Below are positions 7,746 through 57,651 of a stretch of DNA of 64,000 nucleotides, one piece after another; the first letter of the stretch is position 1, and each line of letters starts with the position of its first letter. The notes under the pieces are model-generated. The model was not told the origin of the DNA and searched no databases. It saw only the letters and a list, made by a program, of their open reading frames with translations. Source of the stretch: Anaerolineales bacterium UBA3082 (GTDB lineage: Bacteria; Chloroflexota; Anaerolineae; UBA7937); the NCBI GenBank assembly GCA_002366595.1, contig DFBK01000011.1, positions 13,540-77,539 on the forward strand, in the 5' to 3' direction. The translations under genes and the position numbers were made by a program.

Positions 7746-7840
7746 AGCCCCTCTCCCCTCCGACCGGGCTGTATTGCTCAGTCTATGTCCAGTATTCCCC
7801 GCCCTACTGTCGGTGTCAATGGGAAGAAGGTACTAACAGT

Positions 7841-38086: not shown

Positions 38087-38377
38087 CTAGACCTGTCTCT
38101 TCTTCTCGCCCGCTTGTTCAGTGCCTTCTTGGCGCGGGGAAGAGAAGCCCGCCAGGCTACTGAGGGCCATGGCTATGCCGCCCGCAACACAGATAGCCAG
38201 AGCGAGGTAGGGCCTAGTTCCCACGAAGGCGATGGCGAGCAAGGAAAATAGAATCCATAAAGAAAGGGGCTCCAAAATCGTGATTAGAGATTTCATCGCC
38301 CTTCCATAGCAAGACTGGGTATCAAGCCTTCTGGGCCGAAAGTTCTTCTTCCACAAGTATGCCCTTGCGGAAGTCAA
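38087..38377 (-). CDS. Hypothetical small membrane protein (96 aa)
   Basis: Two hydrophobic helices ('LSLWILFSLLAIAFV', 'LALAICVAGGIAMALSSLAGF'). It overlaps the transaldolase 3' end by ~56 bp, so its coding status is uncertain. Confidence 0.3.
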   Translation of the reverse strand: MTSARAYLWKKNFRPRRLDTQSCYGRAMKSLITILEPLSLWILFSLLAIAFVGTRPYLALAICVAGGIAMALSSLAGFSSPRQEGTEQAGEKKRQV

Positions 38378-39101
38378 CTATCCCTCTGAGACGGTATCCT
38401 GCCTGCTGAGCATCGTTGTAGAACATCTTCACTGTATCCAGCGAGTACTCGTGCAGATCTTTACCAACCAAGGGTAACTTTCTCAGAATGTCGTGAGTGA
38501 CAGTGATGATGTGACACCCGACAGCATCGGCCTGGAATATATTGAGCAATTCACGGGGACTGGCCCAGATCAACTCAAGGTTTGGATACGGGCGCAGTAG
38601 TTGCACGGCTGCTGCCATCAAGGGCACGGGATCATGTCCGGTATCCGCAACACGCCCAGCGAAGACCGAAACAAAGCAGGATGGCCCTTCAGCAAGACAC
38701 TGGCTGATGTCCCGCACTTGATCCAATGTCATCATTGCCGTCACGTTCAATTTCACGCCAGCACGTGCCAACCTGCGCACCAGATCACAAGACGACTGAC
38801 CATGGGTGTTGGTGATGGGAATCTTGACATAGACGTTTTCGCCCCACGAGGAAATCTCTAACGCCTGACGTTCCATCTCGTCAAACTCGTCGGAGAAAAC
38901 CTCGAAGGAAATGGGGCGGTCAGGGATGGTGGCAGTGATTTCTTGGGCGAAGGCGCGATAGTCACTGACCTCCGCTTTGCGCATCAGAGTGGGATTCGTA
39001 GTGAATCCCTTGATCAGAGGGTTGCGATACAGTTCGAGCATGCCGGCCTTGTCGGCCCCGTCGGCGAAGATCTTGATGCTCAGATCGGCTAACCTTTTCA
39101 T
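38322..39101 (-). CDS. Transaldolase / fructose-6-phosphate aldolase family protein (TalC/Fsa-like)
   Basis: 'MKRLADLSIKIFADGADKAGMLELYRNPLIKGFTTNPTLMRKA' matches the Fsa/TalC N-terminal consensus (FaDgA...GvTTNP.L). Start taken at the internal Met (39101) that abuts the gmhB stop; the longest ORF extends to 39146. Confidence 0.75.
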   Translation of the reverse strand: MKRLADLSIKIFADGADKAGMLELYRNPLIKGFTTNPTLMRKAEVSDYRAFAQEITATIPDRPISFEVFSDEFDEMERQALEISSWGENVYVKIPITNTHGQSSCDLVRRLARAGVKLNVTAMMTLDQVRDISQCLAEGPSCFVSVFAGRVADTGHDPVPLMAAAVQLLRPYPNLELIWASPRELLNIFQADAVGCHIITVTHDILRKLPLVGKDLHEYSLDTVKMFYNDAQQAGYRLRGIVDFRKGILVEEELSAQKA

Positions 39102-39652
39102 CCTTTTTCCTCCTGCGCAGGCTGTGTGCGGCGCTGCAAAACCCAACCAACCGCTTCAATGAGTGAGCCAACCCGATGATCTGGGTTGTCCGGCTGTCTC
39201 TCTCTGTAACCATGGTCCACGAAGACGGTTTTGCACCCGGCGCGCTGCCCGGCTTCAATGTCTTTCCAGCGATCTCCCACCATGAAGCTGGCAGACAGAT
39301 CGATCTCCCAATCCTGTGCAGCCTCAAGTAGCAGGCCGGGCTCTGGCTTGCGACATGGGCAGTGGTCCGCATCGTCGTGATAACATACCCGCATGTCATC
39401 CAATGGCAGTCGTTTGCGCAGTACCTGATTCATCGCCTCTACGACTTCACGACGCTGAGTGCCCCGGGCTACACCTGGCTGGTTCGTCACAACGATGAGC
39501 AGGAAACCCGCTTCGTGTAATGAAGTGCAGGCCTCAACCACACCAGGCAGAATCTTCAGTTCGGCTAGGCTGCTAGGGGAATAGGGCCTGCCCTTCCGCG
39601 CAATGGCACGATTCAATACGCCATCCCGATCGAGAAAAACGGCCTGGTGCAT
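39098..39652 (-). CDS. gmhB: D-glycero-D-manno-heptose 1,7-bisphosphate phosphatase (HAD family, GmhB-like)
   Basis: HAD motif I 'AVFLDRDGVLN', motif II 'LIVVTNQ', and the GmhB-typical Cys-rich Zn-binding loop 'CYHDDADHCPCRKP' followed by 'GDRWKDIEAG'. Confidence 0.8.
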   Translation of the reverse strand: MHQAVFLDRDGVLNRAIARKGRPYSPSSLAELKILPGVVEACTSLHEAGFLLIVVTNQPGVARGTQRREVVEAMNQVLRKRLPLDDMRVCYHDDADHCPCRKPEPGLLLEAAQDWEIDLSASFMVGDRWKDIEAGQRAGCKTVFVDHGYRERQPDNPDHRVGSLIEAVGWVLQRRTQPAQEEKG

Positions 39653-39655
39653 GGT

Positions 39656-40249
39656 TCAGCTCACTGATTCCCACTTCATCGGCGACATTTGCAAAGCCGG
39701 ATGGGAAACCAGCAGGTGCCAGATCAGGGCCTGGAAGGACTCGGTATGGGGAGTGATGGTTTCCGGGTTCACTGGGGGGATGACCGCGCAGGCGTTGGCG
39801 ACCTGAGCAGTGTAACCACCGTCCCGGCCCACCACGCCGCAAATAGACGCTCCCACCTCCCGGGCGTATTGCAGGGCGCGCACCAGGTTGGGACTGATGT
39901 TATGCTCCAGGTCCCCGCCGCCGACCGAGAAGACAAAGATCATATCATTGCCGTTTAGGCGGCTCCCCTTCAGCCAGTTGACAAAGACCGATTCCCAGCC
40001 GTCGTCGTTGACCCGGGCGGTCAGTTCGGACACGTTGTCGGTGGGCGTGTAGGCCTCTATACCGACGATCTTTCGGAAGTCGTTCACAGCGTGGGAGGCA
40101 TGGCCAGCGCCGCCGACGCCCAGGAAGAAAAGCCGGCCGCCACGCTCACGAAGGGCGACCAGGAGATTAATCATCCTGTCAATGGCCTCCACGTCCAGAT
40201 TGCCCAGGATCTGGGATGCTTCTGACAGGTAATCTGTTGTGTATGACAT
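39656..40249 (-). CDS. gmhA: Sedoheptulose-7-phosphate isomerase (SIS domain, GmhA)
   Basis: 'GGRLFFLGVGGAGHASHAVNDF' and 'NDMIFVFSVGGG' are SIS-domain phosphosugar-binding motifs. The size (197 aa) matches GmhA. Confidence 0.85.
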   Translation of the reverse strand: MSYTTDYLSEASQILGNLDVEAIDRMINLLVALRERGGRLFFLGVGGAGHASHAVNDFRKIVGIEAYTPTDNVSELTARVNDDGWESVFVNWLKGSRLNGNDMIFVFSVGGGDLEHNISPNLVRALQYAREVGASICGVVGRDGGYTAQVANACAVIPPVNPETITPHTESFQALIWHLLVSHPALQMSPMKWESVS

Positions 40250-40384
40250 GCTTATCTCTACGACATTCTATGAGCCCGTAGCGAGCGGTGCTTGAGTGAC
40301 GAGTCGAAAGCCGCTTGGTCTGGTTTCGACAAGTTCAACCCAAGGGATGTGTCGCTTCGTCCCCTTCGGCAGGATCGGGCGACA

Positions 40385-41374
40385 TTAGAAATTCACCAGC
40401 ACCTTGGCGCCCTCGAAGTCGAAGTCGAAGGGCATCTCGCGGAGGCCCTCAGCAGCCATCGCTTGGCGCAGCCGGACTTTGTGATTATTGGGACAGTAGA
40501 ACATGAAGAAACCACCGCCGCCTGCTCCCATGATCTTGCCCCCCAAGGCGCCATTCTCCTTGGCGATATCGTACCAGCGGTCGATCTCCGGATGGCTGAT
40601 CTTGCCCGAGCGACGCTTCTTGTTCTGCCAATGCTCATCCAGCAAGAGGCCAAATCGCTCTAGATCGCCCTTCTTTAGCGCTTCCTTGATCCGGTACCCC
40701 AATTCCTTGGTACGATGCAGACTGTCAACTACGGCGGTGTCACCACGTTGCGTATCAACCTCCTGATCCTGTAGAATGTCCCGGCTGTGCCGGATGATAC
40801 CGGTGTAGAAGAGGAGGATGCAGTTGCGTAACTCCTCCATCGTGCTCCTGGAGATGCTTAGAGGACTGACGTGGACCGTGCCATCGGGGTCGATATCTAG
40901 ACAGGTGATGCCACCGAAAGCCGCCAGGTAGTGATCGTGTTTGCCTACGGGGTGGTGGGCTAGGTTCATCTCGATATGACAGGCTTGCTCGGCTAGGACT
41001 GGGGTCGGCACCTGCTCACGTTTGAAGGCATAGAGTGCGGTCAGGAGAGCGACGAGATAGCTCCCCGATGAGCCCAGGCCAGTGCCAGCTGGGACATCAG
41101 CCATGGAGACGATCTCCAAAGAGGTGTTGAGGTTGAGAAGCTTCAGCGTTGGGCGTACCAGGTCATGTTGGATGTCATCAACGCGGCTTACCTCCTCATA
41201 TCGGGAGTACTTGATCCGCAGCAGATTGTCGGCAGCCGGACGATTGGTATATACGTAAACGTACTTGTTAATGGCACCGCTGAGGATGAATCCGCCGTAG
41301 TGAGAATAATAAGAGGGCAGGTCAGTTCCACCCCCTCCCAGCGAGATCCGTAAGGGCGCTCTGGTTAAGATCAT
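40385..41374 (-). CDS. hddA: GHMP-family sugar kinase, D-glycero-alpha-D-manno-heptose 7-phosphate kinase (HddA-like)
   Basis: N-terminal 'ILTRAPLRISLGGGGTDL' and GHMP motif 2 'PAGTGLGSSGSYLVALLTAL'. It lies adjacent to gmhA, gmhB and the nucleotidyltransferase. Confidence 0.8.
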   Translation of the reverse strand: MILTRAPLRISLGGGGTDLPSYYSHYGGFILSGAINKYVYVYTNRPAADNLLRIKYSRYEEVSRVDDIQHDLVRPTLKLLNLNTSLEIVSMADVPAGTGLGSSGSYLVALLTALYAFKREQVPTPVLAEQACHIEMNLAHHPVGKHDHYLAAFGGITCLDIDPDGTVHVSPLSISRSTMEELRNCILLFYTGIIRHSRDILQDQEVDTQRGDTAVVDSLHRTKELGYRIKEALKKGDLERFGLLLDEHWQNKKRRSGKISHPEIDRWYDIAKENGALGGKIMGAGGGGFFMFYCPNNHKVRLRQAMAAEGLREMPFDFDFEGAKVLVNF

Positions 41375-41375
41375 G

Positions 41376-42089
41376 TCACTCTCCCTTCTCCCAGATGGCT
41401 TTCACCCGCTGCAGATCCTCCGGTGTATCAATCCACCAGAGATCTTCGCCTTGGGACATCCGATAGCCATATATCGCTTCTCCACGAGCCAGCAAAGATG
41501 GGAATAGATCATGACCGAAGTCAGATGGCGTACCGTCCGGGATGGCATCCAATACCTCTGGCTCTAGTACGAGGATCCCTGCGCTGACCCAGCCGCTGAA
41601 TACTTGGTGAGACTTCGGTTTCTCCACAAACCGGGTGATCCGGTCCTGGTCATCTAGATCAGCGATACCGCTGGCGATGGGGTCATCCCGATGGTAAAGT
41701 GCGATGGTGGCGATACCGCCCTTAGCCAGGTGGAAGACGACAAGCCGGTTCAAGTCACAAGTGGTCAGGTTATCGCCGTAGAGAACGAGGAAGGTGCTGT
41801 CGAACTGCTCTCGCACTCTTCTCACGGCCCCAGCCGTGCCAAGAAGTTCCGGTTCAAAGGAGTAGGTGATATGCACGCCCCAGCGTGAGCCATCGCCAAA
41901 GTGCTCAACGATCGTTTGAGGATGGTGGTGAAGGTTTATCACTGCCTCGCGAATGCCGTGGCGCGCGAGCAACTCCAGATTGTGTTCTAGAATAGGCTTG
42001 TCCCTTACGAGAACCATCGGTTTGGGGATGTGCTCGGTGAGAGGGCGGAGGCGAGTGCCCTGGCCCGCCGCCAGGATCATAGTCTTCAT
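41376..42089 (-). CDS. hddC: Sugar-1-phosphate nucleotidyltransferase, D-glycero-alpha-D-manno-heptose 1-phosphate guanylyltransferase (HddC-like)
   Basis: 'MKTMILAAGQGTRLRPLTEHIPKPMV' is the NTP-transferase signature G-x-G-T-R-L. A short 237-aa form as in HddC, with a 1-bp gap to hddA. Confidence 0.8.
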   Translation of the reverse strand: MKTMILAAGQGTRLRPLTEHIPKPMVLVRDKPILEHNLELLARHGIREAVINLHHHPQTIVEHFGDGSRWGVHITYSFEPELLGTAGAVRRVREQFDSTFLVLYGDNLTTCDLNRLVVFHLAKGGIATIALYHRDDPIASGIADLDDQDRITRFVEKPKSHQVFSGWVSAGILVLEPEVLDAIPDGTPSDFGHDLFPSLLARGEAIYGYRMSQGEDLWWIDTPEDLQRVKAIWEKGE

Positions 42090-42104
42090 GGTTGTGACTG
42101 ATTG

Positions 42105-43121
42105 TTAATTGTCAGCATCCGTCAACTTTACAACTCGGCCAGTCGCTGCGGATTCATAGACCGCGTACGCGAGCCTCAGGGCCTGCCACCCGTCGTAGCC
42201 GTTGCCGAGGGGCTGCCGATCCTCCCGAATGGCCGTCACGAACTCTCGCCATTCTTCCTCCCAGGAGACATCTGGGCCTGGAAACTCGAAACGCTTCTCC
42301 TCCGGGGGCCCTGATTGGGAGAGTCTCTTTCCCCAGATCAAACGTTCCAGCCCATAACTCCCCCCTAGCCCCTCCACAATCAGGTAACCTTCTCGGCCGA
42401 ATATCTCGAAGGAGAAGAGGTTCTTCCATTGAGTCCAACTGGCATGAAGGGAAGCCACCTGCCCTTTGGCTTTACGGAGAAGAGCAAACGCGTTATCCTC
42501 GACGGGCGTATTCCAGAATGAGGTTCCTGTGAAACCCACCACCTCATGAAAATCGCCCAGAAACCAGCGGAAGAGATCCAGAGCATGGATGCCTTGATCC
42601 AGCAACTCTCCACCGCCAGATATCTCCGGATTAGCCCGCCATTCCTTATCGTAGCCTGGCCTCCCGCCATGCCCGTAGCGGCAGCGAATGAAATAGAGCT
42701 CGCCGATAGCCCCTTGATCGAACAACTCACGTGCCTTCCGAATGGCGGCATGGTGTCGATGGTTGAAGCCCGTCTTCAGTTTGACCTTGTTTGCGCGAGC
42801 CGCCTTGACTATTTGCCAGGATTCTTCCGCGTTCCGTCCCAGGGGCTTCTCACAGAGGACATGCTTGCCATTCCGCGCCGCTTCTATGCTTATAGGCGCC
42901 AACCAGTCGTTGCTGGTGGAGACAATGACGGCCTCCACATCATCCCTGGCGACGACCTTTTGCCAGTCGGTTGTAGCCAAGCAGCCCATCTCTCTGGCCA
43001 GCGGTCTAGCCCGGCCCTCGTCCACGTCGGCCACAATTACCAACTCGTCACCAGGAGATTGGCGCACGACATCTGCCCGGCGGCAACCGATGAGACCACA
43101 CCCCACTATCCCGACACGCAT
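42105..43121 (-). CDS. Gfo/Idh/MocA family NAD(P)-dependent oxidoreductase (nucleotide-sugar dehydrogenase-like)
   Basis: 'MRVGIVGCGLIGCRRADVV' Rossmann motif and 'EKPLGRNAEE' (the EKP motif) typical of this family. Confidence 0.8.
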   Translation of the reverse strand: MRVGIVGCGLIGCRRADVVRQSPGDELVIVADVDEGRARPLAREMGCLATTDWQKVVARDDVEAVIVSTSNDWLAPISIEAARNGKHVLCEKPLGRNAEESWQIVKAARANKVKLKTGFNHRHHAAIRKARELFDQGAIGELYFIRCRYGHGGRPGYDKEWRANPEISGGGELLDQGIHALDLFRWFLGDFHEVVGFTGTSFWNTPVEDNAFALLRKAKGQVASLHASWTQWKNLFSFEIFGREGYLIVEGLGGSYGLERLIWGKRLSQSGPPEEKRFEFPGPDVSWEEEWREFVTAIREDRQPLGNGYDGWQALRLAYAVYESAATGRVVKLTDADN

Positions 43122-43123
43122 AG

Positions 43124-43990
43124 CTACTTCAGTTTGTCCATCAGCGGCCGCAAGGTGTACGGATCCATGCGGCGCAGAGTGAACCAGGGCGCAGACATCA
43201 CCTCGGCGATGCGGTCAGCGTCCCAGGACTGCCAGTCATCGTAGGGAGCAGCAATGAGTTTGCCAGTCAACCCATCCGAGTCATCCGAGGCCAGGAACAC
43301 GACCAGTTGTGCCGGCAGCTCTCGAGGCACGCCACCCTCGCCGGTCTCCCTCAACCGGCGGATGCGAGCCAGCAGGTCGCCTGCCCGCTCACCGGCCGTC
43401 AACACTTGGTCTTGCAGGCGAGTATCCACGGCACCAGGGGCGACAACGTTGACCTGGATGTTGAACTCTTTGACCTCTTCGGCCAGGGTCTCGGTCAGCC
43501 GCACACTAGCCGTCTTGGAGACGCCGTAGGCCGTGAAGCGCGGGAGCGGCGATGTCGCGCCCCCTCCAGAGAAGTTAACAATCTTCCCCTGCCGAGATTC
43601 TATCATGTGGGGCAGTACAGTATGGCAACACATAAACGTGCCAAGGAGATTGATCTGGATCGCCTGGATCCACTCATCCACATCTATGTCCCACATGGGA
43701 CCAATGGGGCCGTAGACACCGGCGGCGTTGACCAAGATGTCAATCTGGCCATAGGTGGTCAAGGTGGCCTCAACCAGCTGTAACACATCATCCTGTCTGG
43801 ACACGTCCGTGCGGATGACCTGAACCTGACCACCCATCTTCCGAATTTGGGCTGCAACCTGCTCAAGCTCGGTCTGGGTGCGGGAGGCGATGGCGAGGCG
43901 CGCACCTTCTCGGGCGAACGCCAGAGCAATGGCTTCGCCGATGCCACGTCCCCCGCCGGTGATGATGGCGACTTTGCCTTGCAGCCTCAC
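43124..43990 (-). CDS. Short-chain dehydrogenase/reductase (classical SDR)
   Basis: 'GKVAIITGGGRGIGEAIALAFAREGA' is a TGxxxGxG cofactor motif. 'NAAGV' and a catalytic Y-x3-K ('YGVSK') are present. Confidence 0.8.
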   Translation of the reverse strand: MRLQGKVAIITGGGRGIGEAIALAFAREGARLAIASRTQTELEQVAAQIRKMGGQVQVIRTDVSRQDDVLQLVEATLTTYGQIDILVNAAGVYGPIGPMWDIDVDEWIQAIQINLLGTFMCCHTVLPHMIESRQGKIVNFSGGGATSPLPRFTAYGVSKTASVRLTETLAEEVKEFNIQVNVVAPGAVDTRLQDQVLTAGERAGDLLARIRRLRETGEGGVPRELPAQLVVFLASDDSDGLTGKLIAAPYDDWQSWDADRIAEVMSAPWFTLRRMDPYTLRPLMDKLK

Positions 43991-45315
43991 GATTGACTCC
44001 TTCCCAGCGAAATACCCCGGCCGATCCCAGAGTAGGCAAACCCTAGTTGAATCATTTCTGTCGGGTCGAAGACATTCCTGGTATCAATGAACAGTGGCCG
44101 ACGCATGGCAGCGCGCAGGCAGGGTAAATCCAGGTCGTGAATGCCCGCCCACTCGGTTACGAGCACGAGGGCATCACTGCCCTCAGCAGCAGCATAGGGG
44201 TCGGGACAGGGTTCAAAGGGGGGCAGGTCGGCCACTTCATCCAGGCGGGCCAGTGGGTCGAAGGCTTTGACGGAAGCCCCCTGGGCGACCAAATCACGGA
44301 TGATGTCCAGGGCGATAGATCGGCGCAGAGTGCTGGTGCCGGGCTTATAGGTCAGGCCTAGGATGCCTACCTGAAGGCCCTCCAGCGAGTCGTATATCCT
44401 CTGCAGGCGTCGCCCCACCAGGCTGGCACGCGCCTGATTGACGACCATCACCGCGTCTATCATGGGGGTGTCACACCCGTGTTGCTGACCGAGCCTCTGG
44501 AGTGCCCGAATCTCGCGCCCCAGGGTGCCCCCGGCGAACCCCAGTCCCGGCTTGAGAAAGGCGTACCTACTGATTCGCCGATCAAGCTTCATAATCTGAG
44601 CTACCTGCAATGCGTCGGCGCCGACTTCATCGCACAGGCTGGCCATCTCATTGATAAAGCTGATGGAGGCGGCCAGAAAGGCATTGGAGGCATGCTTCGC
44701 CATCTCCGCGGTGCGCAGGCCGGTGATGACAATGGGCCGACCCAGGGGGCGATAGAGGGCCGCAATCCGTTCAGCCACGGCAGGGTCATTGGCACCCACC
44801 ACGAAACGGTCCGCACGGCGGAAGGTATCCACCGCTGCTCCCAGACGCAGGAACTCCGGCACGTAGGCCACGTCGAGGGCTGCCGCCGGATTCTCCTCCC
44901 GCACAATGGCGGTGATGCGCTCGCAGGTACCTACCGGCACCTGAGCACTGACGATCAGGATCAACTCCCCAGACATGGCCTGTCCGATATGCCGGGCTGC
45001 TTCGAAGATGCTGGTCAAATCCGATTCATCATCAGGTCCCACTGGCGTGTCGATGGCGATGTAGGCAAACTCGGCTCCGTGCAGTGCCTCTCTGTAGTCA
45101 GTCGTATACTTCAACCGCCCGGACCGCACGTTGCGGCGCATGATCGTTTTGAGTTTCGGCTCGTACACCGGAGGTTGGCCGGCGTTCAAGGCAGCCACAA
45201 CCCTCTCGTCATCACCCACTCCGCACACCTGGTGCCCCATGTCGGCTAGGCACGCAGACAACACCGACGCCTGATGCCAGAGGCCGACTATGCAGATGTT
45301 CGCCAATGTGCTCAC
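43987..45315 (-). CDS. Nucleotide-sugar dehydrogenase (UDP-glucose/GDP-mannose dehydrogenase family)
   Basis: N-terminal Rossmann 'ICIVGLWHQASVLSACLADMGHQV' and a central catalytic Cys in 'GLGFAGGTLGREIRAL' (GGxCxxKD-like region is 'FAGGTLG'). The three-domain length (442 aa) fits the family. The 4-bp ATGA overlap with the SDR gene indicates coupling. Confidence 0.75.
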   Translation of the reverse strand: MSTLANICIVGLWHQASVLSACLADMGHQVCGVGDDERVVAALNAGQPPVYEPKLKTIMRRNVRSGRLKYTTDYREALHGAEFAYIAIDTPVGPDDESDLTSIFEAARHIGQAMSGELILIVSAQVPVGTCERITAIVREENPAAALDVAYVPEFLRLGAAVDTFRRADRFVVGANDPAVAERIAALYRPLGRPIVITGLRTAEMAKHASNAFLAASISFINEMASLCDEVGADALQVAQIMKLDRRISRYAFLKPGLGFAGGTLGREIRALQRLGQQHGCDTPMIDAVMVVNQARASLVGRRLQRIYDSLEGLQVGILGLTYKPGTSTLRRSIALDIIRDLVAQGASVKAFDPLARLDEVADLPPFEPCPDPYAAAEGSDALVLVTEWAGIHDLDLPCLRAAMRRPLFIDTRNVFDPTEMIQLGFAYSGIGRGISLGRSQS

Positions 45316-45406: not shown

Positions 45407-46612
45407 TCAGCCGTCGATCCGCTGGATGACCCCCTGCTCGCGCATCACCCGCTCTGCCTCTTCCAGGTACTCTTTCGTGCCCCGCTGCTTACGGATCCAG
45501 GCAATATACTCCACCACGCTCTGCTCCACTGGGATGGTGGGCTCCCATCCCAGGACGCGAAGTTTGGAGATGTCCGACACGGTGTGGCGGGTGTCTCCGA
45601 GCCGGAACTCGCCGGGAATGAGGGGCTCCAGATCGCTGTCGAAGGCATCCAACATGATGCGGGCGAACTCCAGGACGGTGACCGCTCGGCCACCGCCCAC
45701 ATTGAAGACCTCAAAGTTGGCCCGGTCATCTTCCAAGACTAAGAGGTTAGCCCGGGCGACGTCACAGACATTAACGTAGTCGCGCAGTTGTTGGCCATCC
45801 TCATAGATGATGGGGGGCAGGCCATGGAGCAGGCGGAGAGCGAAGCGGCGAGCGATGCCAGAGTAGGCGTTGTAGAAGGAGTTGCGGGGCCCCTGCACGT
45901 AGGTGTAGCGCATGCAGACCGTAGGGATACCGTAGCGCCGGCCCAGCCGATCGGCCAGCAGTTCGATGGCGTACTTGGAGATGCCATAGGCAGTACCAGG
46001 GCTGACCGTGTCTTCGTCAATCAACACCGGCTGCATGACCCCACCACAGTCGGGGCAATGGATTTCCCAGTCGCCGCGTTTCAATTGTTCCAATGGGCGT
46101 GGGGCAGGGATGTGGATGGCGGATGACAGAAGATGGAAGGTGGAAGAATGGAGCGCGGCCAGTTGTTCATGGACGGTGGGCGGGTTGATGCCGCCGGCGC
46201 AGGTGGGGCAGAGATACCGACCCTCACCACACACCGCCTGGGACGAGGCGAAGGTGATCTTTTGCACAGGGTAGCGCTCCCGGTTGGAGACAATGAGCTC
46301 GAAGAGGAGAGCAGCGCTCTCTGTGTTGGTATGAATAAAGGTGGAGAAATCGGGCATGTAGTCCTGGTAGGCAGCCAGGTGAAAGACGTAGTCCACACCC
46401 CGGAGCGCCCGGCTCAGATCATCTTGGTTCACCACGTCGCCCTGGATGAACTCAGCCTCTTTCGGCATGTAGGAGGGCTTGCCTCTAGGGTGTACCCGGG
46501 GTTGCAGGTTGTCCAGGATGCGGACACGATAGCCCTTTTCCAGCAGCAGATCAACCGTATGGGAGCCGATGAAACCAGCCCCGCCGGTCACAAGCACTTT
46601 TGGTGATGGCAT
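45407..46612 (-). CDS. Extended-SDR NAD-dependent epimerase/dehydratase with ~50-aa four-cysteine (zinc-ribbon-like) insertion
   Basis: 'KVLVTGGAGFIGSHTVDLLLEKGYRV' is the TGGAGFIG motif. The catalytic Ser region is 'FASSQAVCGEG', and Y-x3-K is 'YGISK'. About 70 residues separate the catalytic Ser and Tyr, versus ~25 in typical extended SDRs. The insert contains 'CGEGRYLCPTCAGG' and 'CPDCGGV'. Confidence 0.8.
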   Translation of the reverse strand: MPSPKVLVTGGAGFIGSHTVDLLLEKGYRVRILDNLQPRVHPRGKPSYMPKEAEFIQGDVVNQDDLSRALRGVDYVFHLAAYQDYMPDFSTFIHTNTESAALLFELIVSNRERYPVQKITFASSQAVCGEGRYLCPTCAGGINPPTVHEQLAALHSSTFHLLSSAIHIPAPRPLEQLKRGDWEIHCPDCGGVMQPVLIDEDTVSPGTAYGISKYAIELLADRLGRRYGIPTVCMRYTYVQGPRNSFYNAYSGIARRFALRLLHGLPPIIYEDGQQLRDYVNVCDVARANLLVLEDDRANFEVFNVGGGRAVTVLEFARIMLDAFDSDLEPLIPGEFRLGDTRHTVSDISKLRVLGWEPTIPVEQSVVEYIAWIRKQRGTKEYLEEAERVMREQGVIQRIDG

Positions 46613-46700: not shown

Positions 46701-47366
46701 CTAATAGTTGCTGCCCGACAGCACATACCAAGCCGCACCGAAGAGGAGTTTGATATCAAGCCAGAGGGACCAGTTATCAATGTACTCCAGGTCAAGTTTG
46801 ATCCACTCTTTGAACTCTTTGGGCTTGCCTCGGACGTGCCAGAGGCAAATCATGCCGGGGGTGACGCTGAGTTTGCGCCGTTGCCACTCTTCAAAATGTT
46901 CCCACTCCGCAGGACCGACTGGGCGGGGGCCGACTAGGCTCATGTCGCCTTTGAGGACGCTCCAGAGTTGGGGCAGTTCATCCAGGCTGAACTTGCGTAA
47001 GACGCGGCCCACGGGCGTAACCCGCGGGTCATTTTTTAGTTTGAAGGTGGGGCCGTTCCTCTCGTTGTATTGCCAGAGGTCTTTCTTCAGTCCGTCGGCG
47101 TTGACGACCATGGTACGGAGTTTGTAGCCGGTGAATCTTTTGCCGCCTTTTCCAATCACAACCCATTGATAGAGAACAGGACCAGGTGAGGTAATCTTGA
47201 TAACTGCGCCGATAGCGAGCAGAAGCGGAGTTAAGATAACCAACGACATGGCAGAAATACCCACATCAAGTATCCGTTTCACACCCAATTGCCATCGAGA
47301 AGCAAGCAGACGTGTCTGACCAAGATGCCTCAGGGGCATTTTCTCTGGAGACACATCATGCAGCAT
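46701..47366 (-). CDS. Small monotopic phosphoglycosyltransferase (PglC/WcaJ-C-terminal-like sugar transferase, Bac_transf)
   Basis: 'KRILDVGISAMSLVILTPLLLAIGAVIKITSPGPVLYQWVVIGKGGKRFTGYKLRTMVVNAD...DELPQLWSVLKGDMSLVGPRP' is the complete Bac_transf signature in a 221-aa protein. Confidence 0.9.
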   Translation of the reverse strand: MLHDVSPEKMPLRHLGQTRLLASRWQLGVKRILDVGISAMSLVILTPLLLAIGAVIKITSPGPVLYQWVVIGKGGKRFTGYKLRTMVVNADGLKKDLWQYNERNGPTFKLKNDPRVTPVGRVLRKFSLDELPQLWSVLKGDMSLVGPRPVGPAEWEHFEEWQRRKLSVTPGMICLWHVRGKPKEFKEWIKLDLEYIDNWSLWLDIKLLFGAAWYVLSGSNY

Positions 47367-48589: not shown

Positions 48590-49759
48590 TCACGCTCGCG
48601 CTGCTTCTTCCAGAATCTCGAGAGTGCGGGCAGCGCTTCGTTTCCAAGTGTAATCTTTCGCCCTCTGTCGTCCACGCACAATCAAGCTCTGGTGCAAGGA
48701 TCGATCATGCAGTACACGTTCCATGCCATCGGCAATAGAGTCCTCGTCAAGTGGATCCACCAACACGGCGGCGTCTCCGGCCAATTCGGCCATGCTGCCG
48801 CTATTTGAAGTCACGACCGGACAGCCGCAGGCCATAGCTTCCAAAGCGGGATATCCGAAGGTCTCGTAGAGCGATGGGATCACCGCCAAATCAGCGCCCA
48901 AGTAGGTGGCTGCTGCCAAGTGATGATCCAGCCTATCAGTAAATACCACATCCTCTAGCACACCGGCCTGCTTGGCTACCATTCGCAGTTCATCAAATGA
49001 AACGCTGATCTCGCTGCCCACCAGAAGTAGGACATGGCGCAGGTTTGTGCGTCGTTTCAACAAGCCGAAAGCACGAATTAAGCGAGCGTGATTCTTGTAG
49101 CCATAGGTTGACGATACATACAAGATGTACGGTCGGCCTGCGGTTAGTTCAGCGCCCACTCGTCGCTCCGGGGCATCCTGCGGCACCTCTGCCAGCCTCC
49201 AGATATCCCATGAAAGTCCATGCGGCACAATACTTACTTTCTCTGCTGGCACTCCCGTCCAGTGCACAAGATCACGCTTGGAATGTTCCGTAAAGATGAT
49301 GACACTTACCGCTTTTTTCAGAGACAATGGCAACATGTAGCGCAGGTAGGCCCCGCGCAATCGCCCATAAGCCTCTGGCATTTCGTAGAACTGAAGGAAT
49401 TGCACTGCCAGCACCACGGGGGTCTTGGTTAGCAAAGGCGCTACTGTTGCAGTAGCAAAGAATACATCCAGCCGTTGACTGGCAATAGCAGCAGCCAACC
49501 CAGTTTGCTGGTAGAGAACACGCGGTGGGCGACTAACCGGAACGCCGGGGAGCCTCACTATTTCGACGTTCGACGGAATTGTCTCCAGCACTGGGTCTGC
49601 CCAAGCTGGCGTAAATAGAATGAATTGATGCTGAGGGCCTTGGATGACAAACTCTGTCAACAGTGATTGTAGATACACTCGCATTCCGCCCGGTCCCTGC
49701 CGGCTTGTCGCTTCTCCAGGCGAGATATTGTCTATGCCAATGCGTAGAGAACGGCTCAT
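48590..49759 (-). CDS. Glycosyltransferase family 4
   Basis: 'YILYVSSTYGYKNHARLIRAF' and the 'PSLYETFGYPALEAMACGCPVVTSNSGSMAELAGDAAVLVDP' Glycos_transf_1 core (E-x7-E). Confidence 0.85.
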   Translation of the reverse strand: MSRSLRIGIDNISPGEATSRQGPGGMRVYLQSLLTEFVIQGPQHQFILFTPAWADPVLETIPSNVEIVRLPGVPVSRPPRVLYQQTGLAAAIASQRLDVFFATATVAPLLTKTPVVLAVQFLQFYEMPEAYGRLRGAYLRYMLPLSLKKAVSVIIFTEHSKRDLVHWTGVPAEKVSIVPHGLSWDIWRLAEVPQDAPERRVGAELTAGRPYILYVSSTYGYKNHARLIRAFGLLKRRTNLRHVLLLVGSEISVSFDELRMVAKQAGVLEDVVFTDRLDHHLAAATYLGADLAVIPSLYETFGYPALEAMACGCPVVTSNSGSMAELAGDAAVLVDPLDEDSIADGMERVLHDRSLHQSLIVRGRQRAKDYTWKRSAARTLEILEEAARA

Positions 49760-51509
49760 CGCTTACGCAACAAGAATGAGCCTAAGCTGAGGTACTCTAG
49801 GCCGGAGTTGGAGAACACGTGCAAGGCGTCAGCGACATTGCACACCACTGGCTCCCCATGTAAGTTATACGAAGTGTTGAGCACCGCGCCAATTCCGGTG
49901 AGTTTTTCGAACTGCTTGATCAGCGCGTAATACGCTGGGTTCCACCGCTCTTCGACAATCTGCGGCCGCAGTGTCATATCATATGAGTGCATCGCCGCTC
50001 GCAGTTCGCGCTTTGCTCGAGCGGTGGAATGGAACGCCAAGATCATGTAAGGCGCTGGGACATTCTTTGGGTTGATCAGGTAATCATGTGCTCGTTCAGC
50101 CAAGATGCTCGGTGCGAATGGCATCCAAAAGTCGCGGCTCTTGATCTGGTCATTGATCACCCGTACGATATCAGGGTTAGATGGATGAGCCAGAATGCTG
50201 CAGTTGCCAAGTGCCCGTGCGCCCCATTCCATCCGCCCGTCGCGACGGGCCACGACTTTTCCTTCCCTAGCAGTTGTGCTACGTGTTGGATCATGTCGCC
50301 CGGTTTCTCGATGATGTATTGCGCAGCCAGGTTATGATCGCGTATGTAACGCTCGATGTCCGCGTCGGTATACTGGGGCCCCCAGTACAAATCGCGAATG
50401 GATTCGCCCTCCCAGGGGAGACCTTGGCGCTCGCAACATTGTTTATAGCCGTAATATGCCGCACCAATTGCGCCGCTTTCGTCGCCACAGCTTGGGAAGA
50501 TGAATAACTCCTCCACCTCGGGCATTTCCATCACGCACATATTCGCTTTGACATTCATGAATACGCCACCAGACAGGACGACCGTCCGGATCCCGGTTGC
50601 GGCAATGGCATTCTGGACCAACTTGACGATCAGCTCCTCAATTAACCGTTGAATCGCCCCAGCAATGGAGTCGAACCGGTGTCCCCTCAGCCGCTCTTGG
50701 AGATAATACGGGACCAATTGGCTGCGCACCTTCACACGCAACGAGAGAGTGTCGTCAACCAAGCCTATGAGTTCAGCAAAAACAGGGTAGGTCTTATCTA
50801 TGTTGTACTCGCTGCAGTATGGCGCCAGCCCCATCACCTTGTATTCGTGCTCAAGTGGTTTCATCCCCATGTACTCAGTAATCTGGGAATACAAGTGTCC
50901 CAGTGAGTTGGTATCATCAATCTGTGCAATCCGGGTTAGCATGCTGTCTTTGGCGACACTTATCGTTCCGGAGAGACCGTCGCCTTCACCGTCAAGCGTG
51001 ATGACAAGCGATGGTTTGCCAATGAACGGGCTGCCATACCAACAATAAGCATGGGCAGTGTGGTGATCCACAAACAGAATGCGATCCTCCGGAACGGGCA
51101 ACACCTCCAGAAGGGGTTTCACCCTGTCACCGGAGGCCAGAGCAGTGCCGATTCTCTGGACTGCACGCCGACCCGCTGTGCCAACTGGCCTCAACGACGG
51201 TAGCCGGTATTCGAGGCGCCTCATCCATACTCGAGGAGTGTGAGAGATATGGGAGAGACCTCGCTTGAACTCGCTTCTGACCATGGATCCCAGGAACGCC
51301 CGGTGACCCAGGAAACAAACTAAATCCACGTCGCCTGGGCCAATGGCTGAAGTCTCTATCAGCCACTTGACAGCGCGCCTGGGGAAACCAGTTTCGTTCT
51401 TGATCCGCGTGAACCGCTCCTCGCTCACGCAGGCGATCACCCTCCCATCCTGGAGAAGGCACGCAGTCGCCAGGTGACCATCATTGATTCCGAGAATGTA
51501 CATGTTCAA
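49756..51509 (-). pseudogene. Carbamoyltransferase (NodU/CmcH family) interrupted by a single frameshift
   Basis: The N-terminal ORF (50157-51509) reads 'MNMYILGINDGHLATACLLQDGRVIACVSEERFTRIKNETGFPRRAV', the NodU/CmcH N-domain. The C-terminal ORF (49756-50253) reads 'RRDGRMEWGARALGNCSILAHPSNPD...', the conserved EFGPRALGNRSIL region. The two frames overlap over ~100 bp. Near 50262-50270 one frame gives 'LGKEKSWP' and the adjacent frame gives 'GKVVARRDG', consistent with a 1-nt indel. Confidence 0.75.
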
Positions 51510-51575: not shown

Positions 51576-53330
51576 TCATTTCGCATCGGTCGGTTGGTCA
51601 CACTCACGAGCCCTCGTTTCAGAGGTGTCTACCTTGACGATGTAATACTTAATCGTGCCAATATTGACTTGATATACGATCTCGGTAATCGGGATTCCTC
51701 TCCACATTGATGAGGTCATCGGCTGAATCTTATTGTTGTCAGCAAGATATTGAATTCCCTGCAATTGCACGAAGCACGCTAACTGATTGCGCTCCAAATA
51801 CCTCAGAAACTCATAGCTATTGACCAGCCCATCCAGGTTTGTGATGCGCCGATGGCTGAAGTAGCCCAACACGCCTGCGTTCCAGGAACCTACCACAGAG
51901 TCAGGGGGGAGGTTCTTATCAATCCATTGGGCCGCCAGATAATTGGCCTCCGATGCCTCCACGTTAGGATATACGGGCCGCTGAGCATCAGAAAGCCAGA
52001 GGGGCAAGATAATCACAGCCAATAGTCCTACAGCGCGACCAGCCCAAACGGCTGCCGTGTTGCTTTTGAGCCAACATTTTGCGAATTGCCACAATAGGCG
52101 TAGAGTGGACGCTCCTAGAAAAGTCAAGACCATATATTCAGGCACCAGCCACCACCATGTCCCACTAGTAACTAGGAATGATGGGAACAAGATGACGTAG
52201 GCTCCAAAGTGCAAAAGAGTAAACAGGAATAGAAGCCAATTGCGCCTAAAGCTCTTTGATTCTCTTCTAACTATCTCTGAGGACGACTGCAATCTGCGTG
52301 CACCATAAACCAAAACACTCGCTGCAATCAACAAACTTGAGATCAAGGCCAAAAGGAGCATCCATCCACCGCTGCTTGGATTAGTGAGAGCAGCGTAGAA
52401 TGTTGGAAACAACAGTCTCACCCCTCCACTCATGAACGAACGAGGCATAGCGAATGTCCCAAATAAATGTCCAACTAGATATAGGGTCGCTGCGACTGCC
52501 ATCTGGAGAGCAAAGAGTAAATAATTCATACCTCCAAGTTCGCGGATAAGCATCTCAGTTTCCAGAAGTTTTGCCGCCCCACTAACTGGTAGTAAATGAC
52601 CGAAGTAGACTTGGTTAATGAGAAGATAAGGCACAATCACTACTGCACAAGGAGCAACGATCAGTCCGGAGACCCGGATGCGTTCTGTCCATCCTTTGGG
52701 CCATGTCTTCCATAATAGAGTGATCCACACTATCGGCATCAACAGGTACGCGTCCGTTCGCGCCAGAAAAGTAAATCCCACTAGCAACCCGAGCAGAATC
52801 AACTGCTTATGCTTTGTGGAAACACCATTCGCACGAAACTCTTTTACGTAGTAATAGCTCGTAGCGCCCAGTAACATTGCATACAGAGGGCTCTCCATCC
52901 CCGCAAGCATCTTGGTAACTAGTCCGGGGGAGAACAACCAGATCCAAGCTACAACAATGGCAATGCGTTTGCCGCCAACAATGCGCGCCAGGGCATACAG
53001 GAACCAAGCAGACGCTATATGAATAAGGGCATTTGTCACTGCAAAGATACGCACTTGGGTGGTTGGATCGGAGACTCCAAACCATGTAGACAGCTTCGTC
53101 ACTGCAAGAATAGTTAGGAACCATAGAGGTTGAACCCCGTTCGTCAAATTCACACCATCAAAGGTCAATCTTCCACTGTTCAAGTAATTTCGCCCGATCT
53201 GAAAGTAATAGAAGGCGTCGTCAATGCGCATCAAGTAGGAGCGGTCTTGCATCCAGATGAAGACAAGATAGATCACCAGGGCGACAGCCATACCAAATTG
53301 AACCAGGAAATCGTCCTTGCGACTTGTCAT
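51576..53330 (-). CDS. Polytopic membrane protein, GT-C-like putative glycosyltransferase (584 aa from internal start)
   Basis: ~13 hydrophobic helices. An early loop carries 'DDAFYYFQIGRNYLNSGRLTFDG', a DD/DE-type GT-C loop-1-like motif. Start chosen at 'MTSRKDD' so that it abuts the upstream GT4 stop; the longest ORF extends to 53573. Confidence 0.5.
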   Translation of the reverse strand: MTSRKDDFLVQFGMAVALVIYLVFIWMQDRSYLMRIDDAFYYFQIGRNYLNSGRLTFDGVNLTNGVQPLWFLTILAVTKLSTWFGVSDPTTQVRIFAVTNALIHIASAWFLYALARIVGGKRIAIVVAWIWLFSPGLVTKMLAGMESPLYAMLLGATSYYYVKEFRANGVSTKHKQLILLGLLVGFTFLARTDAYLLMPIVWITLLWKTWPKGWTERIRVSGLIVAPCAVVIVPYLLINQVYFGHLLPVSGAAKLLETEMLIRELGGMNYLLFALQMAVAATLYLVGHLFGTFAMPRSFMSGGVRLLFPTFYAALTNPSSGGWMLLLALISSLLIAASVLVYGARRLQSSSEIVRRESKSFRRNWLLFLFTLLHFGAYVILFPSFLVTSGTWWWLVPEYMVLTFLGASTLRLLWQFAKCWLKSNTAAVWAGRAVGLLAVIILPLWLSDAQRPVYPNVEASEANYLAAQWIDKNLPPDSVVGSWNAGVLGYFSHRRITNLDGLVNSYEFLRYLERNQLACFVQLQGIQYLADNNKIQPMTSSMWRGIPITEIVYQVNIGTIKYYIVKVDTSETRARECDQPTDAK

Positions 53331-53331
53331 A

Positions 53332-54543
53332 TCACCTATGCTCTGCAGCGACCCAATTGGAAAGTGTTTCATAGACTTGTGCGACGCGGTCATAATAGGT
53401 CTCCCAGGTAAAATTGCGGACATACTCAAGCGCCGATCGTCCCATCTCTTTGCGCAACCGTTCATTAGTGTAGAGCTGCGAAATTCTATCTTGTAGAGCC
53501 CTAACGTCACGAATAGGCACAACGAACCCATCTTGACCATCGCGCGCGATAGAGCCGGCGTTCTCACTAACAACGAGTGGCAGCCCGCAGGCCATGGCTC
53601 CGTAGGTTACCAGGGCTGAACCTTCTACTAGCGAGGGCAACACAAAGACCGAAGCATTGCTAAAGTACGTATGAAGCTCTAATTGGGGAACGTGGTCAAT
53701 GTGCCGGTAGGTACCCGCATACTCTTTGAGCAAGGGTAGTATTTCAGGTGTCGGTGCCCCGATGAGCACGAGTTCACTGTGGGGAAGTCTCAGTCGCCGA
53801 TAGGCCTCTAAGAGGTACTGCACGCCTTTGCGTAACTGGAGGGTACCCGCAAACAGAATCCGAAAACAGTCATCGCTTTTTGAAGACGGCTTATAGACGC
53901 GCTGATCGTAACCGTAAGGAACCAGAACGAGTTTGCTCTTTTCTACCCCTGCCCGAACGCAACCGTCAAATACGGTTTGTGACCCAACCAGAACCCGATC
54001 AGCCATGGCAATCTCTGCACACGTTCGAGCAGTCCACAAATCCTGAGAGGCATCAGGAGGAACATCATAGCGTTTCCATTCTTCCTCCATAACGGCATTC
54101 GCCACCACAGGATGCATAATCTTCAAGTCCAGGATGCAGGAAGCGCCCGCCATCTTTGCCCTACGCATTGATAAAAGTGAACAACCGTCAAAGCCATGGA
54201 AAATATCACTCTCTGCAGCATAGCGCGCTGCCCAGTAATCAAACAGCACATTCTGTATGTAGTACCAGGGCAACCTGCGACCTCCGATTGCTGGTGTCTT
54301 CTTAGCCAGGCGTGCTGCCGCCTCTGCCCACCAGAAGCTCCTAACTTTGTCCAGTTGCAGTTCTGGCAGATTCCGATTCAATCGTCGTGCCTGGGGTAAG
54401 GCTAACGATAACAATTTACCGGAAAGCGATCCCGGCTTGTAGTAGACAGTTGTCAGCAGGAACTTGAGATAGCCGGCTCTCTGTGCAGCCAGGGCGGTAT
54501 GATAAGCTTGGTTCTTGCTAGCATTTGCGACGATCACATTCAT
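53332..54543 (-). CDS. Glycosyltransferase family 4
   Basis: C-terminal 'FRILFAGTLQLRKGVQYLLEA...LPSLVEGSALVTYGAMACGLPLVVSENAGSIARDGQDGFVVP' Glycos_transf_1 pattern. Confidence 0.8.
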   Translation of the reverse strand: MNVIVANASKNQAYHTALAAQRAGYLKFLLTTVYYKPGSLSGKLLSLALPQARRLNRNLPELQLDKVRSFWWAEAAARLAKKTPAIGGRRLPWYYIQNVLFDYWAARYAAESDIFHGFDGCSLLSMRRAKMAGASCILDLKIMHPVVANAVMEEEWKRYDVPPDASQDLWTARTCAEIAMADRVLVGSQTVFDGCVRAGVEKSKLVLVPYGYDQRVYKPSSKSDDCFRILFAGTLQLRKGVQYLLEAYRRLRLPHSELVLIGAPTPEILPLLKEYAGTYRHIDHVPQLELHTYFSNASVFVLPSLVEGSALVTYGAMACGLPLVVSENAGSIARDGQDGFVVPIRDVRALQDRISQLYTNERLRKEMGRSALEYVRNFTWETYYDRVAQVYETLSNWVAAEHR

Positions 54544-56676: not shown

Positions 56677-57651
56677 TCAGCCATAAGTCCGCGCCCGCTG
56701 CTTATTGAGCCAGAGCCAGTATCGCAGACATCCCTCTTCGAGGCCGATGTCTGGTTTCCATCCAAGTACTTGTTGGGCCAGGGTGATGTCTAGTACGTTG
56801 ATAGGGACATCAAAAGGCCGACTTGCGCTGTAGTTCACCACCAACTTCCGTCCCATAACTCCTTCGACCACTTCGAGCAGATCATTAAGGCTGATGCCTC
56901 TCCCGCTACCTACGTTCATTAGTCGGGTGGAGGGCATCCGCTCAAGCAGCTTACAAACTGCTACACCCAAATCGTCAACGTGGAAGTAGTCTCGGATAAC
57001 GCTGCCGTCTCCCCAGATCTCAAAGGGCTGTTCTGTTAGAGCTGCGTTCAACATAGCTGCTATTACCCCTTGCCTGCGCCCAAGATCTTGACGCTCACCA
57101 TAGGGATTGGCACAACGCAGGATGTAGTATCTCACCCCGTGCAGATGGTAAAAAAGGTACAAATACTTCTCAACAGCAAGATTTGTGATACCATATGAGC
57201 AGACGGGGCTTGTGGGATGGCTCTCCGATATTGGATTACTCTGTGGTATACCATAGACTGTGCCCCCGGACGAGATGTAGATGATCACGCTGTTTCCCAG
57301 CTTTGTTGCTTCTTCGAGCAACCCCAGGGCTCCTACTATCGTAGTCTGAACATCTTGCACAGGGTCAAGATTGGACTCAGCAGGCAAGCTTGTACCGATG
57401 CAATGAATCACAACTTCAACGCTTTGCAGAGCAGCTCTAAGGGCCTTGCGATCAAGGAAATCACCCACAACGAAGTCAATCTGTTGATCAATTTCTCGCC
57501 GTCCCGTAAGCGGTTTTGCTGTGCGACTGAATACCCTTACAGGGTAACCCTGACACACCAGTTCCTCAGCAATGTGAGATCCGATGAAGCCGGCTCCCAA
57601 GACCAGACAGTTCTGCTTCTTTGGCTGTCTAGTATCAGCCTCGGAAGTCAT
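56677..57651 (-). CDS. NAD-dependent epimerase/dehydratase (extended SDR)
   Basis: 'NCLVLGAGFIGSHIAEELVCQGYPVRVFSR' Rossmann motif, 'YISSGGTVYG' and 'YGITNLAVEKY' (Y-x3-K). Confidence 0.8.
   Translation of the reverse strand: MTSEADTRQPKKQNCLVLGAGFIGSHIAEELVCQGYPVRVFSRTAKPLTGRREIDQQIDFVVGDFLDRKALRAALQSVEVVIHCIGTSLPAESNLDPVQDVQTTIVGALGLLEEATKLGNSVIIYISSGGTVYGIPQSNPISESHPTSPVCSYGITNLAVEKYLYLFYHLHGVRYYILRCANPYGERQDLGRRQGVIAAMLNAALTEQPFEIWGDGSVIRDYFHVDDLGVAVCKLLERMPSTRLMNVGSGRGISLNDLLEVVEGVMGRKLVVNYSASRPFDVPINVLDITLAQQVLGWKPDIGLEEGCLRYWLWLNKQRARTYG

Follow-up and report, generated by a model that had tools for sequence, protein, structure and literature searches.

WbiB from Burkholderia thailandensis (Q2SYH7) and Tle from Mycobacterium abscessus (MAB_4111c) are the only two biochemically characterized members of a subfamily of extended short-chain dehydrogenases/reductases (SDRs), and both are deoxythymidine diphosphate (dTDP)-L-rhamnose 4-epimerases (EC 5.1.3.25, KEGG K17947). 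The AlphaFold 3 model of Tle displays an 'additional helix, long loop and pair of antiparallel strands' between the catalytic residues, an account in which metal or cysteines go unmentioned, and mutagenesis of the same enzyme identified the substrate-site residues Asn210 and Arg249 as essential (PMC11549994). The solved extended SDRs include several uridine diphosphate (UDP)-hexose 4-epimerases (GalE 4ZRM/4ZRN, WbpP 1SB8, PelX 6WJB and the M. ruminantium enzyme 6DNT), which combine a Rossmann and a substrate domain with a Ser-Tyr-Lys triad. The present analysis concerns a member of the WbiB/Tle-like subfamily encoded in a stretch of 64,000 nucleotides (the window) from contig DFBK01000011.1 of Anaerolineales bacterium UBA3082. 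Its architecture and triad are those of the solved 4-epimerases, but about 65 residues stand where these have approximately 5-7 and no metal site, and the additional module carries two CxxC knuckles whose four cysteines most likely bind a single structural Zn2+.

An insertion between the catalytic residues of an extended SDR

The gene occupies positions 45407-46612 on the minus strand as an uninterrupted open reading frame (ORF) of 401 codons, and the 401-residue product is 100% identical to a protein in public assemblies (contig NODE_5 of ENA ERZ778604). The first-pass annotation had placed it at exactly these positions without stating the strand; a plus-strand reading is rejected, as it has stops throughout and no ORF. 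Pfam recovers PF01370 (NAD-dependent epimerase/dehydratase) with E=1e-43 and 150 bits against a cut-off of 20.9, the match being divided into two stretches.

Homologues were collected at several depths. A word-indexed search returned thousands of homologues, of which the best 120 are 69-100% identical to the query and nearly all 395-430 residues long; 17 of these 120 were aligned as the close set. A broad set was obtained with HMMER over 1.84 billion cluster representatives (50% identity), giving 1052 matches at E<=1e-30, of which the best 150, minus partial ones and plus the query and WbiB, yielded 143 full-length sequences for classification. An alignment of 95 diverse sequences was used for modelling. 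A species-level set with one genome per GTDB species contained 270 relatives, of which the best 80, all from metagenome-assembled genomes and 54-77% identical, were used. The principal elements of the protein are the following:

46565..46585, minus: Rossmann NAD-binding motif GGAGFIG, residues 10-16, read from the translation and nearly invariant in the 95-sequence alignment
46241..46243, minus: catalytic Ser124, assigned by register with GalE and WbpP; Ser in 79 of the 80 relatives
46025..46219, minus: inserted module, residues 132-196 (RYLCPTC...CPDCGGVMQPV), confidently modelled and with no PDB counterpart
46199..46210, minus: knuckle 1, C135-P-T-C138, predicted metal ligands 1 and 2, invariant in the 17 close homologues
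46112..46198, minus: extra loop, residues 139-167, sub-clade-specific, differing between homologues in both length and sequence; a short helix is predicted at 147-152
46064..46108, minus: insert core, P169-A-P-R172-P-L-E-Q-L-K-R-G-D-W182-E, with R172 and W182 invariant or nearly so
46046..46057, minus: knuckle 2, C186-P-D-C189(-G), predicted ligands 3 and 4; CxxC in 80/80 relatives and invariant in the 17 close homologues
45974..45988, minus: catalytic Tyr-x3-Lys, Y209-G-I-S-K213, invariant in the 95 sequences and in 80/80 relatives
45410..45487, minus: C-terminal extension, residues 376-401 (EYLEEAERVMREQGV...), predicted helix and short strand

The distance from Ser124 to Tyr209 is 85 residues, compared with approximately 25 in GalE and other canonical enzymes; counted from the end of SSQAVCG it is 79, such that the first-pass annotation was right in noting an abnormally long stretch and slightly low in putting it at ~70 residues. 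All four motifs that it had read from the translation (SSQAVCG, CPTC, CPDC and YGISK) are indeed there. Its identification of the product as an extended-SDR epimerase/dehydratase is likewise borne out by PF01370, by sequence matches in the PDB, by the AlphaFold2 model and by Foldseek, and the alignments to PDB homologues, split as they are around the module, support its view of a genuine two-CxxC insertion between Ser and YxxxK. Specifically, all 136 phmmer matches in the PDB align as two blocks flanking residues 132-198; in the alignment with 4ZRM, query residues 139-204 face chain residues 136-141, leaving about 60 query residues unmatched. A counterpart of the insert was found in the PDB neither by phmmer, nor by Foldseek with the full model, nor by a hidden Markov model (HMM) of the insert, which matched no SDR. 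Matches of that HMM to C2H2 zinc fingers were rejected as motif mimicry rather than homology ('GEKPYKCPECG' against 'GEGRYxCxxCG').

Foldseek with the full model against the PDB gave T. maritima GalE (4ZRM) as the best match (E=1e-29, template modelling (TM) score normalized to target 0.9), and by both sequence and fold the closest structures are 4-epimerases (4ZRM, 6DNT, 6WJB and 1SB8). The Foldseek matches are confined to 4-epimerases, dehydratases and decarboxylases, mostly of 300-350 residues. Their TM-scores are approximately 0.9 when normalized to the target and approximately 0.7 when normalized to the query, from which it follows that about a quarter of the protein, namely the insert and the extension at residues 376-401, is without a solved counterpart. 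This conserved extension runs past the end of all solved homologues, has no equivalent in WbiB and Tle and may pack against the module.

The catalytic serine lies in the segment ASSQAVCG (residues 122-129), and was assigned by the register of GalE S124 and WbpP S142, in which the serine stands four residues before the Y/C-G-E-G position. Residue 128 (46229-46231, minus) is a Cys where the 'A-V-Y-G-E-G' motif usually has Tyr; the position is Ala in 25, Tyr in 23, Cys in 16 and Ser in 16 of the 80 relatives, and Tyr in 70/95 sequences of the broader subfamily. There are only seven cysteines in the whole protein. In the sugar-nucleotide 4,6-dehydratases of the RmlB/GMD type the catalytic Thr is followed directly by an Asp-Glu pair ('TDE'). 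Here S123-S124-Q125-A126 is followed by V and, as in the solved 4-epimerases, the Asp-Glu pair is absent, which indicates an active site of the epimerase or oxidoreductase/reductase type (Ser-Tyr-Lys). A 4,6-dehydratase was rejected on the same ground and by the RmlB model TIGR01181 (110.7 bits against a cut-off of 365). GalE (TIGR01179, 103.2 against 262.3) and HldD, the adenosine diphosphate (ADP)-L-glycero-D-manno-heptose 6-epimerase (TIGR02197, 94.1 against 274.6), were also rejected, and no NCBIfam equivalog cut-off was reached in the scan of the SDR.

BLASTP gives 29% identity between the query and WbiB and 28% between the query and Tle, with the sequences of both enzymes taken from the supplement of PMC11549994. 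Both align with the query straight through the insert, with the P-x-R-x3-QL-x4-W motif in register, and share the D-x-L-x-P-x-V-H motif after strand beta2. Judged from its sequence, the gene product is a functional NAD-dependent nucleotide-sugar enzyme of the WbiB/Tle-like subfamily of extended SDRs. WbiB and Tle differ from it in a shorter insert (Ser-to-Tyr 55-60 residues versus 85) that lacks the CxxC knuckles, while equivalents of Arg172 and Trp182 are kept.

The putative ligand set and predicted fold of the module

An insert at the Ser-Tyr position is present in 137/143 full-length representatives, typically with about 35 residues (Ser-to-Tyr 59-61). The first-pass annotation regarded the insertion as non-standard, and this holds for the solved extended SDRs, from which it is absent, but not for the subfamily, in which it is the rule. 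Among the 143 sequences, CxxC + CxxC occurs in 40, CxxH + CxxC in 44, CxxD + CxxC in 7, an irregular first knuckle with CxxC in 12 and the first knuckle only in 6, while 28 have an insert without Cys knuckles, the class that includes WbiB and Tle, and 6 have no insert. Expressed as ligand sets, 91 are complete, 28 have none, 18 are partial, some of these being misses of the regular expression on irregular knuckles, and 6 lack the insert.

The close and species-level sets convey the same picture. All four insert cysteines are invariant in the 17 close homologues, whereas the stretch 139-167 is free in sequence and length; in a protein with only seven cysteines, this exceeds what chance would give. 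The 80 relatives come from Chloroflexota, Acidobacteriota, Latescibacterota, Gemmatimonadota, Dormibacterota, Acidimicrobiia and Firmicutes, and also from Nitrospira, Poribacteria, Gammaproteobacteria and several lineages of the candidate phyla radiation (CPR). Arg172, Trp182, Cys186, Cys189, Glu200, Tyr209 and Lys213 are invariant in 80/80 of them, and 77/80 have Cys as ligand 1 (Cys135). At ligand 2, 57 carry His, 11 Cys and 6 Asp, with another residue in the remaining 6. Conservation of the cysteines in orthologues, the check that the first-pass annotation had proposed, is thus confirmed, with four invariant positions in the close set and three near-invariant ones in the 80 relatives; the four-Cys set that it described is present but is a minority form, Cys3His being the commonest arrangement among close relatives. 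Across the 95 diverse sequences Arg172 is invariant, and Trp182 and Glu200 are each conserved in at least 90%.

The Ser-to-Tyr spacing is 59 in 63 of the 80 relatives and 81-95 in the other 17, and residues 139-167 are gapped in approximately 78/95 sequences. The window protein therefore belongs to a minority sub-clade distinguished by Cys138 as ligand 2 and by about 25 additional loop residues that follow the first knuckle. In four Terriglobia loci (L018, L019, L021 and L036, match at ~10001-11190) a loop of about 30 residues instead separates the first Cys from a His-Gly that is retained; since the loop precedes this His-Gly, the ligand is kept across the insertion. Hence, the site of knuckle 1 seems to have been expanded independently, inside the knuckle in Terriglobia and after a complete CxxC in the sub-clade of the window protein, and in both cases the ligand set was preserved.

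The full AlphaFold2 model, built on the 95-sequence alignment, has a mean pLDDT (predicted local distance difference test) of 96.4 and a predicted TM-score (pTM) of 0.94, with pLDDT 82-98 in the insert region; the insert modelled alone also folds (pLDDT 85.7, pTM 0.74). In the model a strand (132-134) leads into knuckle 1, a helix (174-178) follows Arg172, and knuckle 2 (CPDC) is entered from a beta-bridge at residue 185 and succeeded by a further strand (194-196). Both model and alignments thus have two CxxC knuckles at beta-hairpin turns with conserved ligands, as expected of a zinc ribbon. The top Foldseek matches of the module, which are non-significant, are sirtuins, and weak structural matches to the zinc ribbons of TFIIE-alpha were also obtained. 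Sirtuins themselves have a Rossmann fold into which a Cys4 zinc module is inserted. More generally, the zinc modules of sirtuins, adenylate-kinase lids and TFIIE/TFIIB likewise consist of two CxxC-type knuckles on beta-hairpins, and those of nucleotide-binding enzymes are likewise small domains inserted in a Rossmann-type enzyme. As the scores are marginal or not significant and homology is undetectable, the likeness is one of architecture only, and the predicted module can be described as zinc-ribbon-like without assignment to a curated zinc-ribbon family.

Since Cys, Cys/His/Asp, Cys and Cys are kept broadly and the ligands occur largely in an all-or-none manner, the pattern is the signature of a structural zinc site. 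The suggestion of such a site in the first-pass annotation therefore agrees with the conservation, in particular with the exchange of Cys for His or Asp at one ligand, and it is from this pattern that we infer zinc itself; the four cysteines most likely bind one structural Zn2+.

An alternative, in line with the protein-protein docking that the first-pass annotation had suggested, is that the module serves mainly as a docking or oligomerization surface, for the SDR dimer partner or for an enzyme encoded nearby, with the metal only holding its shape. Zinc ribbons often mediate interactions, and the partners encoded in the cassette described below are tightly co-conserved. Moreover, the anchor of the insert immediately precedes helix alpha5, the element that makes up the SDR dimer interface in the Tle model (PMC11549994). 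Against this, R172 and W182 are invariant across lineages with different partners, which fits an intramolecular or substrate-related role better, and the variable extra loop speaks against a conserved interface at that place; such a role as the principal one appears improbable. Less probable still, and to be considered very unlikely, is that the four cysteines hold a rubredoxin-like Fe or an Fe-S cluster, forming a redox centre that re-oxidizes or regulates the bound NAD(H). The CxxC...CPxCG knuckles are shared with rubredoxins, and a profile of the insert yields weak rubredoxin matches in the PDB (E ~0.9-1.3, not significant). Some heptose-modifying SDRs, such as C. jejuni Cj1427, do require cofactor recycling. 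But 57/80 of the close relatives have His, and 6/80 Asp, as ligand 2, and 28/143 representatives, including the active WbiB and Tle, lack the ligands altogether, a dispensability not expected of an essential redox centre.

The existence of active Cys-less homologues with the same insert could also be taken to mean that the cysteines are metal-free, either as disulfides or as relics, the insert being held by packing as in WbiB and Tle. This has slightly less in its favour than the iron centre: three ligands are near-absolute and the fourth is Cys, His or Asp in 74/80 relatives, and preservation of the set over 54-77% identity and many phyla points to strong selection on chelation, while disulfides are unlikely in the cytoplasm. 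The idea that the insert is an artefact of a frameshift or misalignment, which the first-pass annotation had named as possible refutations, or of an assembly error, can be dismissed, because the ORF is uninterrupted, the identical protein comes from independent sources, the search for family members with the same insert that it had proposed recovered thousands of full-length homologues, and the AlphaFold2 model of the region is confident; the insert is a true insertion.

Gene context and likely substrate

The window represents an extended polysaccharide region on one strand and encodes Wzx, Wzy and Wzz together with glycosyltransferases, methyltransferases and a pair of phosphoglycosyl transferases. 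The first gene directly downstream of the SDR encodes a nucleoside diphosphate (NDP)-sugar 6-dehydrogenase, and it is followed on the minus strand by a cassette of seven genes spanning 38322..43990 (38322-45315 when counted as an eight-gene cassette):

43124-43990, minus: classical SDR
42105-43121, minus: GFO/IDH/MocA oxidoreductase
41376-42089, minus: sugar-1-P nucleotidyltransferase, HddC-like
40385-41374, minus: GHMP kinase, HddA-like, with HddA as its best NCBIfam match
39656-40249, minus: SIS protein of 197 residues, GmhA-like
39098-39652, minus: HAD-IIIA phosphatase, GmhB-like, with GmhB models as its best enzyme-specific matches
38322-39146, minus: transaldolase

This gene set adjoins the insert-bearing SDR in six inspected contigs, namely that of the window and five from different lineages. 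In a tblastn count with the window proteins over 53 genome loci having at least 8 kb downstream, the kinase was found in 48, the SIS protein in 41, the nucleotidyltransferase in 40, the classical SDR in 38, the transaldolase in 37, the HAD phosphatase in 34 and the GFO oxidoreductase in 27. The association of cassette and insert-bearing SDR spans many phyla, CPR included, with the NDP-sugar dehydrogenase present or not; several loci of Blastocatellia have the five core genes with the insert-bearing SDR as the sole redox enzyme beside them.

An isomerase, an anomeric kinase, a 7-phosphatase and a nucleotidyltransferase make up the logic of the guanosine diphosphate (GDP)-D-glycero-alpha-D-manno-heptose pathway (GmhA, HddA, GmhB and HddC), and the window neighbours are a SIS protein together with proteins that best match HddA, GmhB and sugar-1-P nucleotidyltransferases. 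A dedicated transaldolase, a GFO/IDH/MocA oxidoreductase and a classical SDR are not among the genes of the heptose pathways described in the literature searched. The known heptose-modifying SDRs (HldD/AGME and the C. jejuni enzymes) are equally distinct, the window SDR scoring only 94 bits against the HldD cut-off cited above. Since the SDR belongs to a conserved heptose-type cassette, its substrate would be an NDP-heptose or a derivative thereof rather than dTDP-L-rhamnose.

This conclusion is at variance with the label "dTDP-L-rhamnose 4-epimerase" that JGI gives to many close homologues, the window protein included. Identity of 28-29% to WbiB and Tle is too low for transferring substrate specificity. 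The equivalent of Tle Arg249 is present in the query as R277, but that of Asn210 is Tyr238, and this position is Tyr in 57 and Ile in 23 of the 80 relatives. Genes of the rml type were found nowhere within the annotated 25-64 kb of the window, where the context is a heptose-type cassette and not one of rml or GPL genes; one relative (L003) has rml-like genes nearby. The low identity, the change of Asn210 to Tyr or Ile and the absence of rml genes at 25-64 kb suggest that the name has been over-transferred. The label is probably wrong for the clade of the window protein, and the gene context makes an NDP-heptose epimerase or oxidoreductase the more likely assignment.

Certain other features of the region are recorded here. 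Nearly all ORFs of at least 150 residues lie on the minus strand across the 64 kb, as does every annotated ORF. The phosphoglycosyl transferases are a full-length one at 25128-26543 and a short one at 46701-47366, Wzy_C genes lie at 32885-34237 and 54540-55979, and 56677-57651 encodes another extended SDR, one of canonical length; the paired phosphoglycosyl transferases and Wzy_C genes, together with the second SDR, suggest that the window holds two adjacent polysaccharide loci. A carbamoyltransferase at 49756-51509 (minus) is split in two overlapping ORFs, 50157-51509 for the N-terminal domain and 49756-50253 for the C-terminal one, and is also split in public gene calls on the same contig (L001, 5110-6456 and 6567-6857), probably by a frameshift, by pseudogenization or through an assembly error. 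At 51576-53573 (minus) is encoded a protein of 665 residues, without a Pfam match at 1e-5 and with only a weak PMT_2 match in public annotation, which is probably a large membrane glycosyltransferase-like protein. In a KSB1 relative (L005/L006, ~7640-9685) small genes for four-helix bundles of the 23S_rRNA_IVP/bAvd family flank the SDR within the cassette.

Proposed mechanism and implications

Taken together, the above observations favour the reading of the window protein as a WbiB/Tle-like extended SDR with a structural Zn2+ insert at its cleft and a substrate of the NDP-heptose type, which is considered reasonably probable as a whole. According to this reading, the loop between strand beta5, bearing Ser124, and helix alpha5, bearing Tyr209, would have been expanded into an autonomous two-knuckle zinc-ribbon-like module. 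Cys135, Cys138, Cys186 and Cys189 would chelate one structural Zn2+, which could staple the two beta-hairpins and thereby fix the invariant segment P-x-x-R172-x3-Q-L-x3-x-W182-E. As the anchors Gly131 and Glu200 are within ten residues of Ser124 and Tyr209, the module is placed at the mouth of the cleft, where the R172-W182 segment most probably forms a wall or lid, with Arg172 and Trp182 potentially facing either the substrate or the core. The metal would be structural rather than catalytic, as suggested by homologues that exchange ligand 2 for His or Asp. Adenylate-kinase lids exist in both Cys4-zinc and metal-free versions, and by analogy with the latter packing might replace the metal in WbiB and Tle.

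The cassette could begin with the transaldolase and proceed through the GmhA-like isomerase, the HddA-like kinase and the GmhB-like phosphatase to the HddC-like nucleotidyltransferase. The product would be an NDP-D-glycero-D-manno-heptose; the SDR may act on this or on a derivative of it. A more far-reaching proposal, which is best treated as tentative and rather doubtful, is that the SDR and its seven partners constitute an undescribed heptose-nucleotide pathway, with the GFO/IDH/MocA and classical SDR genes as optional members, in which a zinc lid adapts a WbiB-like 4-epimerase scaffold to a heptose substrate, making the enzyme the first metal-containing extended SDR.

Several points weigh against the combination of zinc insert and heptose substrate. 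With the insert alone, all Zn_ribbon models of Pfam remain below threshold, and CPxCG knuckles are shared by the Fe-binding rubredoxins. Where the insert lies with respect to the substrate is deduced from its anchor points. None of the cassette proteins reaches its NCBIfam equivalog cut-off (e.g. 168 versus 600 bits for HddA and 129 versus 178 for GmhB), such that 'heptose' is to be understood at the level of the families, and the SIS-like protein of the window has no Pfam match at 1e-5. Finally, relatives with short inserts occur in other polysaccharide loci devoid of the cassette, and the insert is therefore a trait of the subfamily and not specific to heptose.

What was already known of this module is its Cys-less form, from the single AlphaFold model of Tle (PMC11549994). 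Searches of the literature, the PDB and Pfam/NCBIfam yielded no description of a metal-binding module in an extended SDR. To our knowledge, no extended SDR has been described with one. The enzyme class and the structural zinc ribbon as such are ordinary; what is out of the ordinary is their combination, its breadth in uncultured phyla and the linked cassette. Extended SDRs rank among the best-studied sugar-nucleotide enzymes, and a module between the catalytic residues that thousands of environmental sequences carry and no solved structure contains marks a clear gap in structural coverage. The metal-module family also explains a feature that was recorded and left uninterpreted in the M. abscessus Tle model.

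In practice, the automatic name "dTDP-L-rhamnose 4-epimerase" has probably been over-propagated to a clade with an NDP-heptose gene context. If the proposed pathway exists, it would span Chloroflexota, Acidobacteriota, Latescibacterota, Gemmatimonadota, Dormibacterota and even CPR, and would provide uncultured bacteria with a new heptose derivative, activated as a nucleotide, for their envelope polysaccharides. The eight-gene cassette offers a testable route to a possibly new bacterial heptose across many uncultured phyla.

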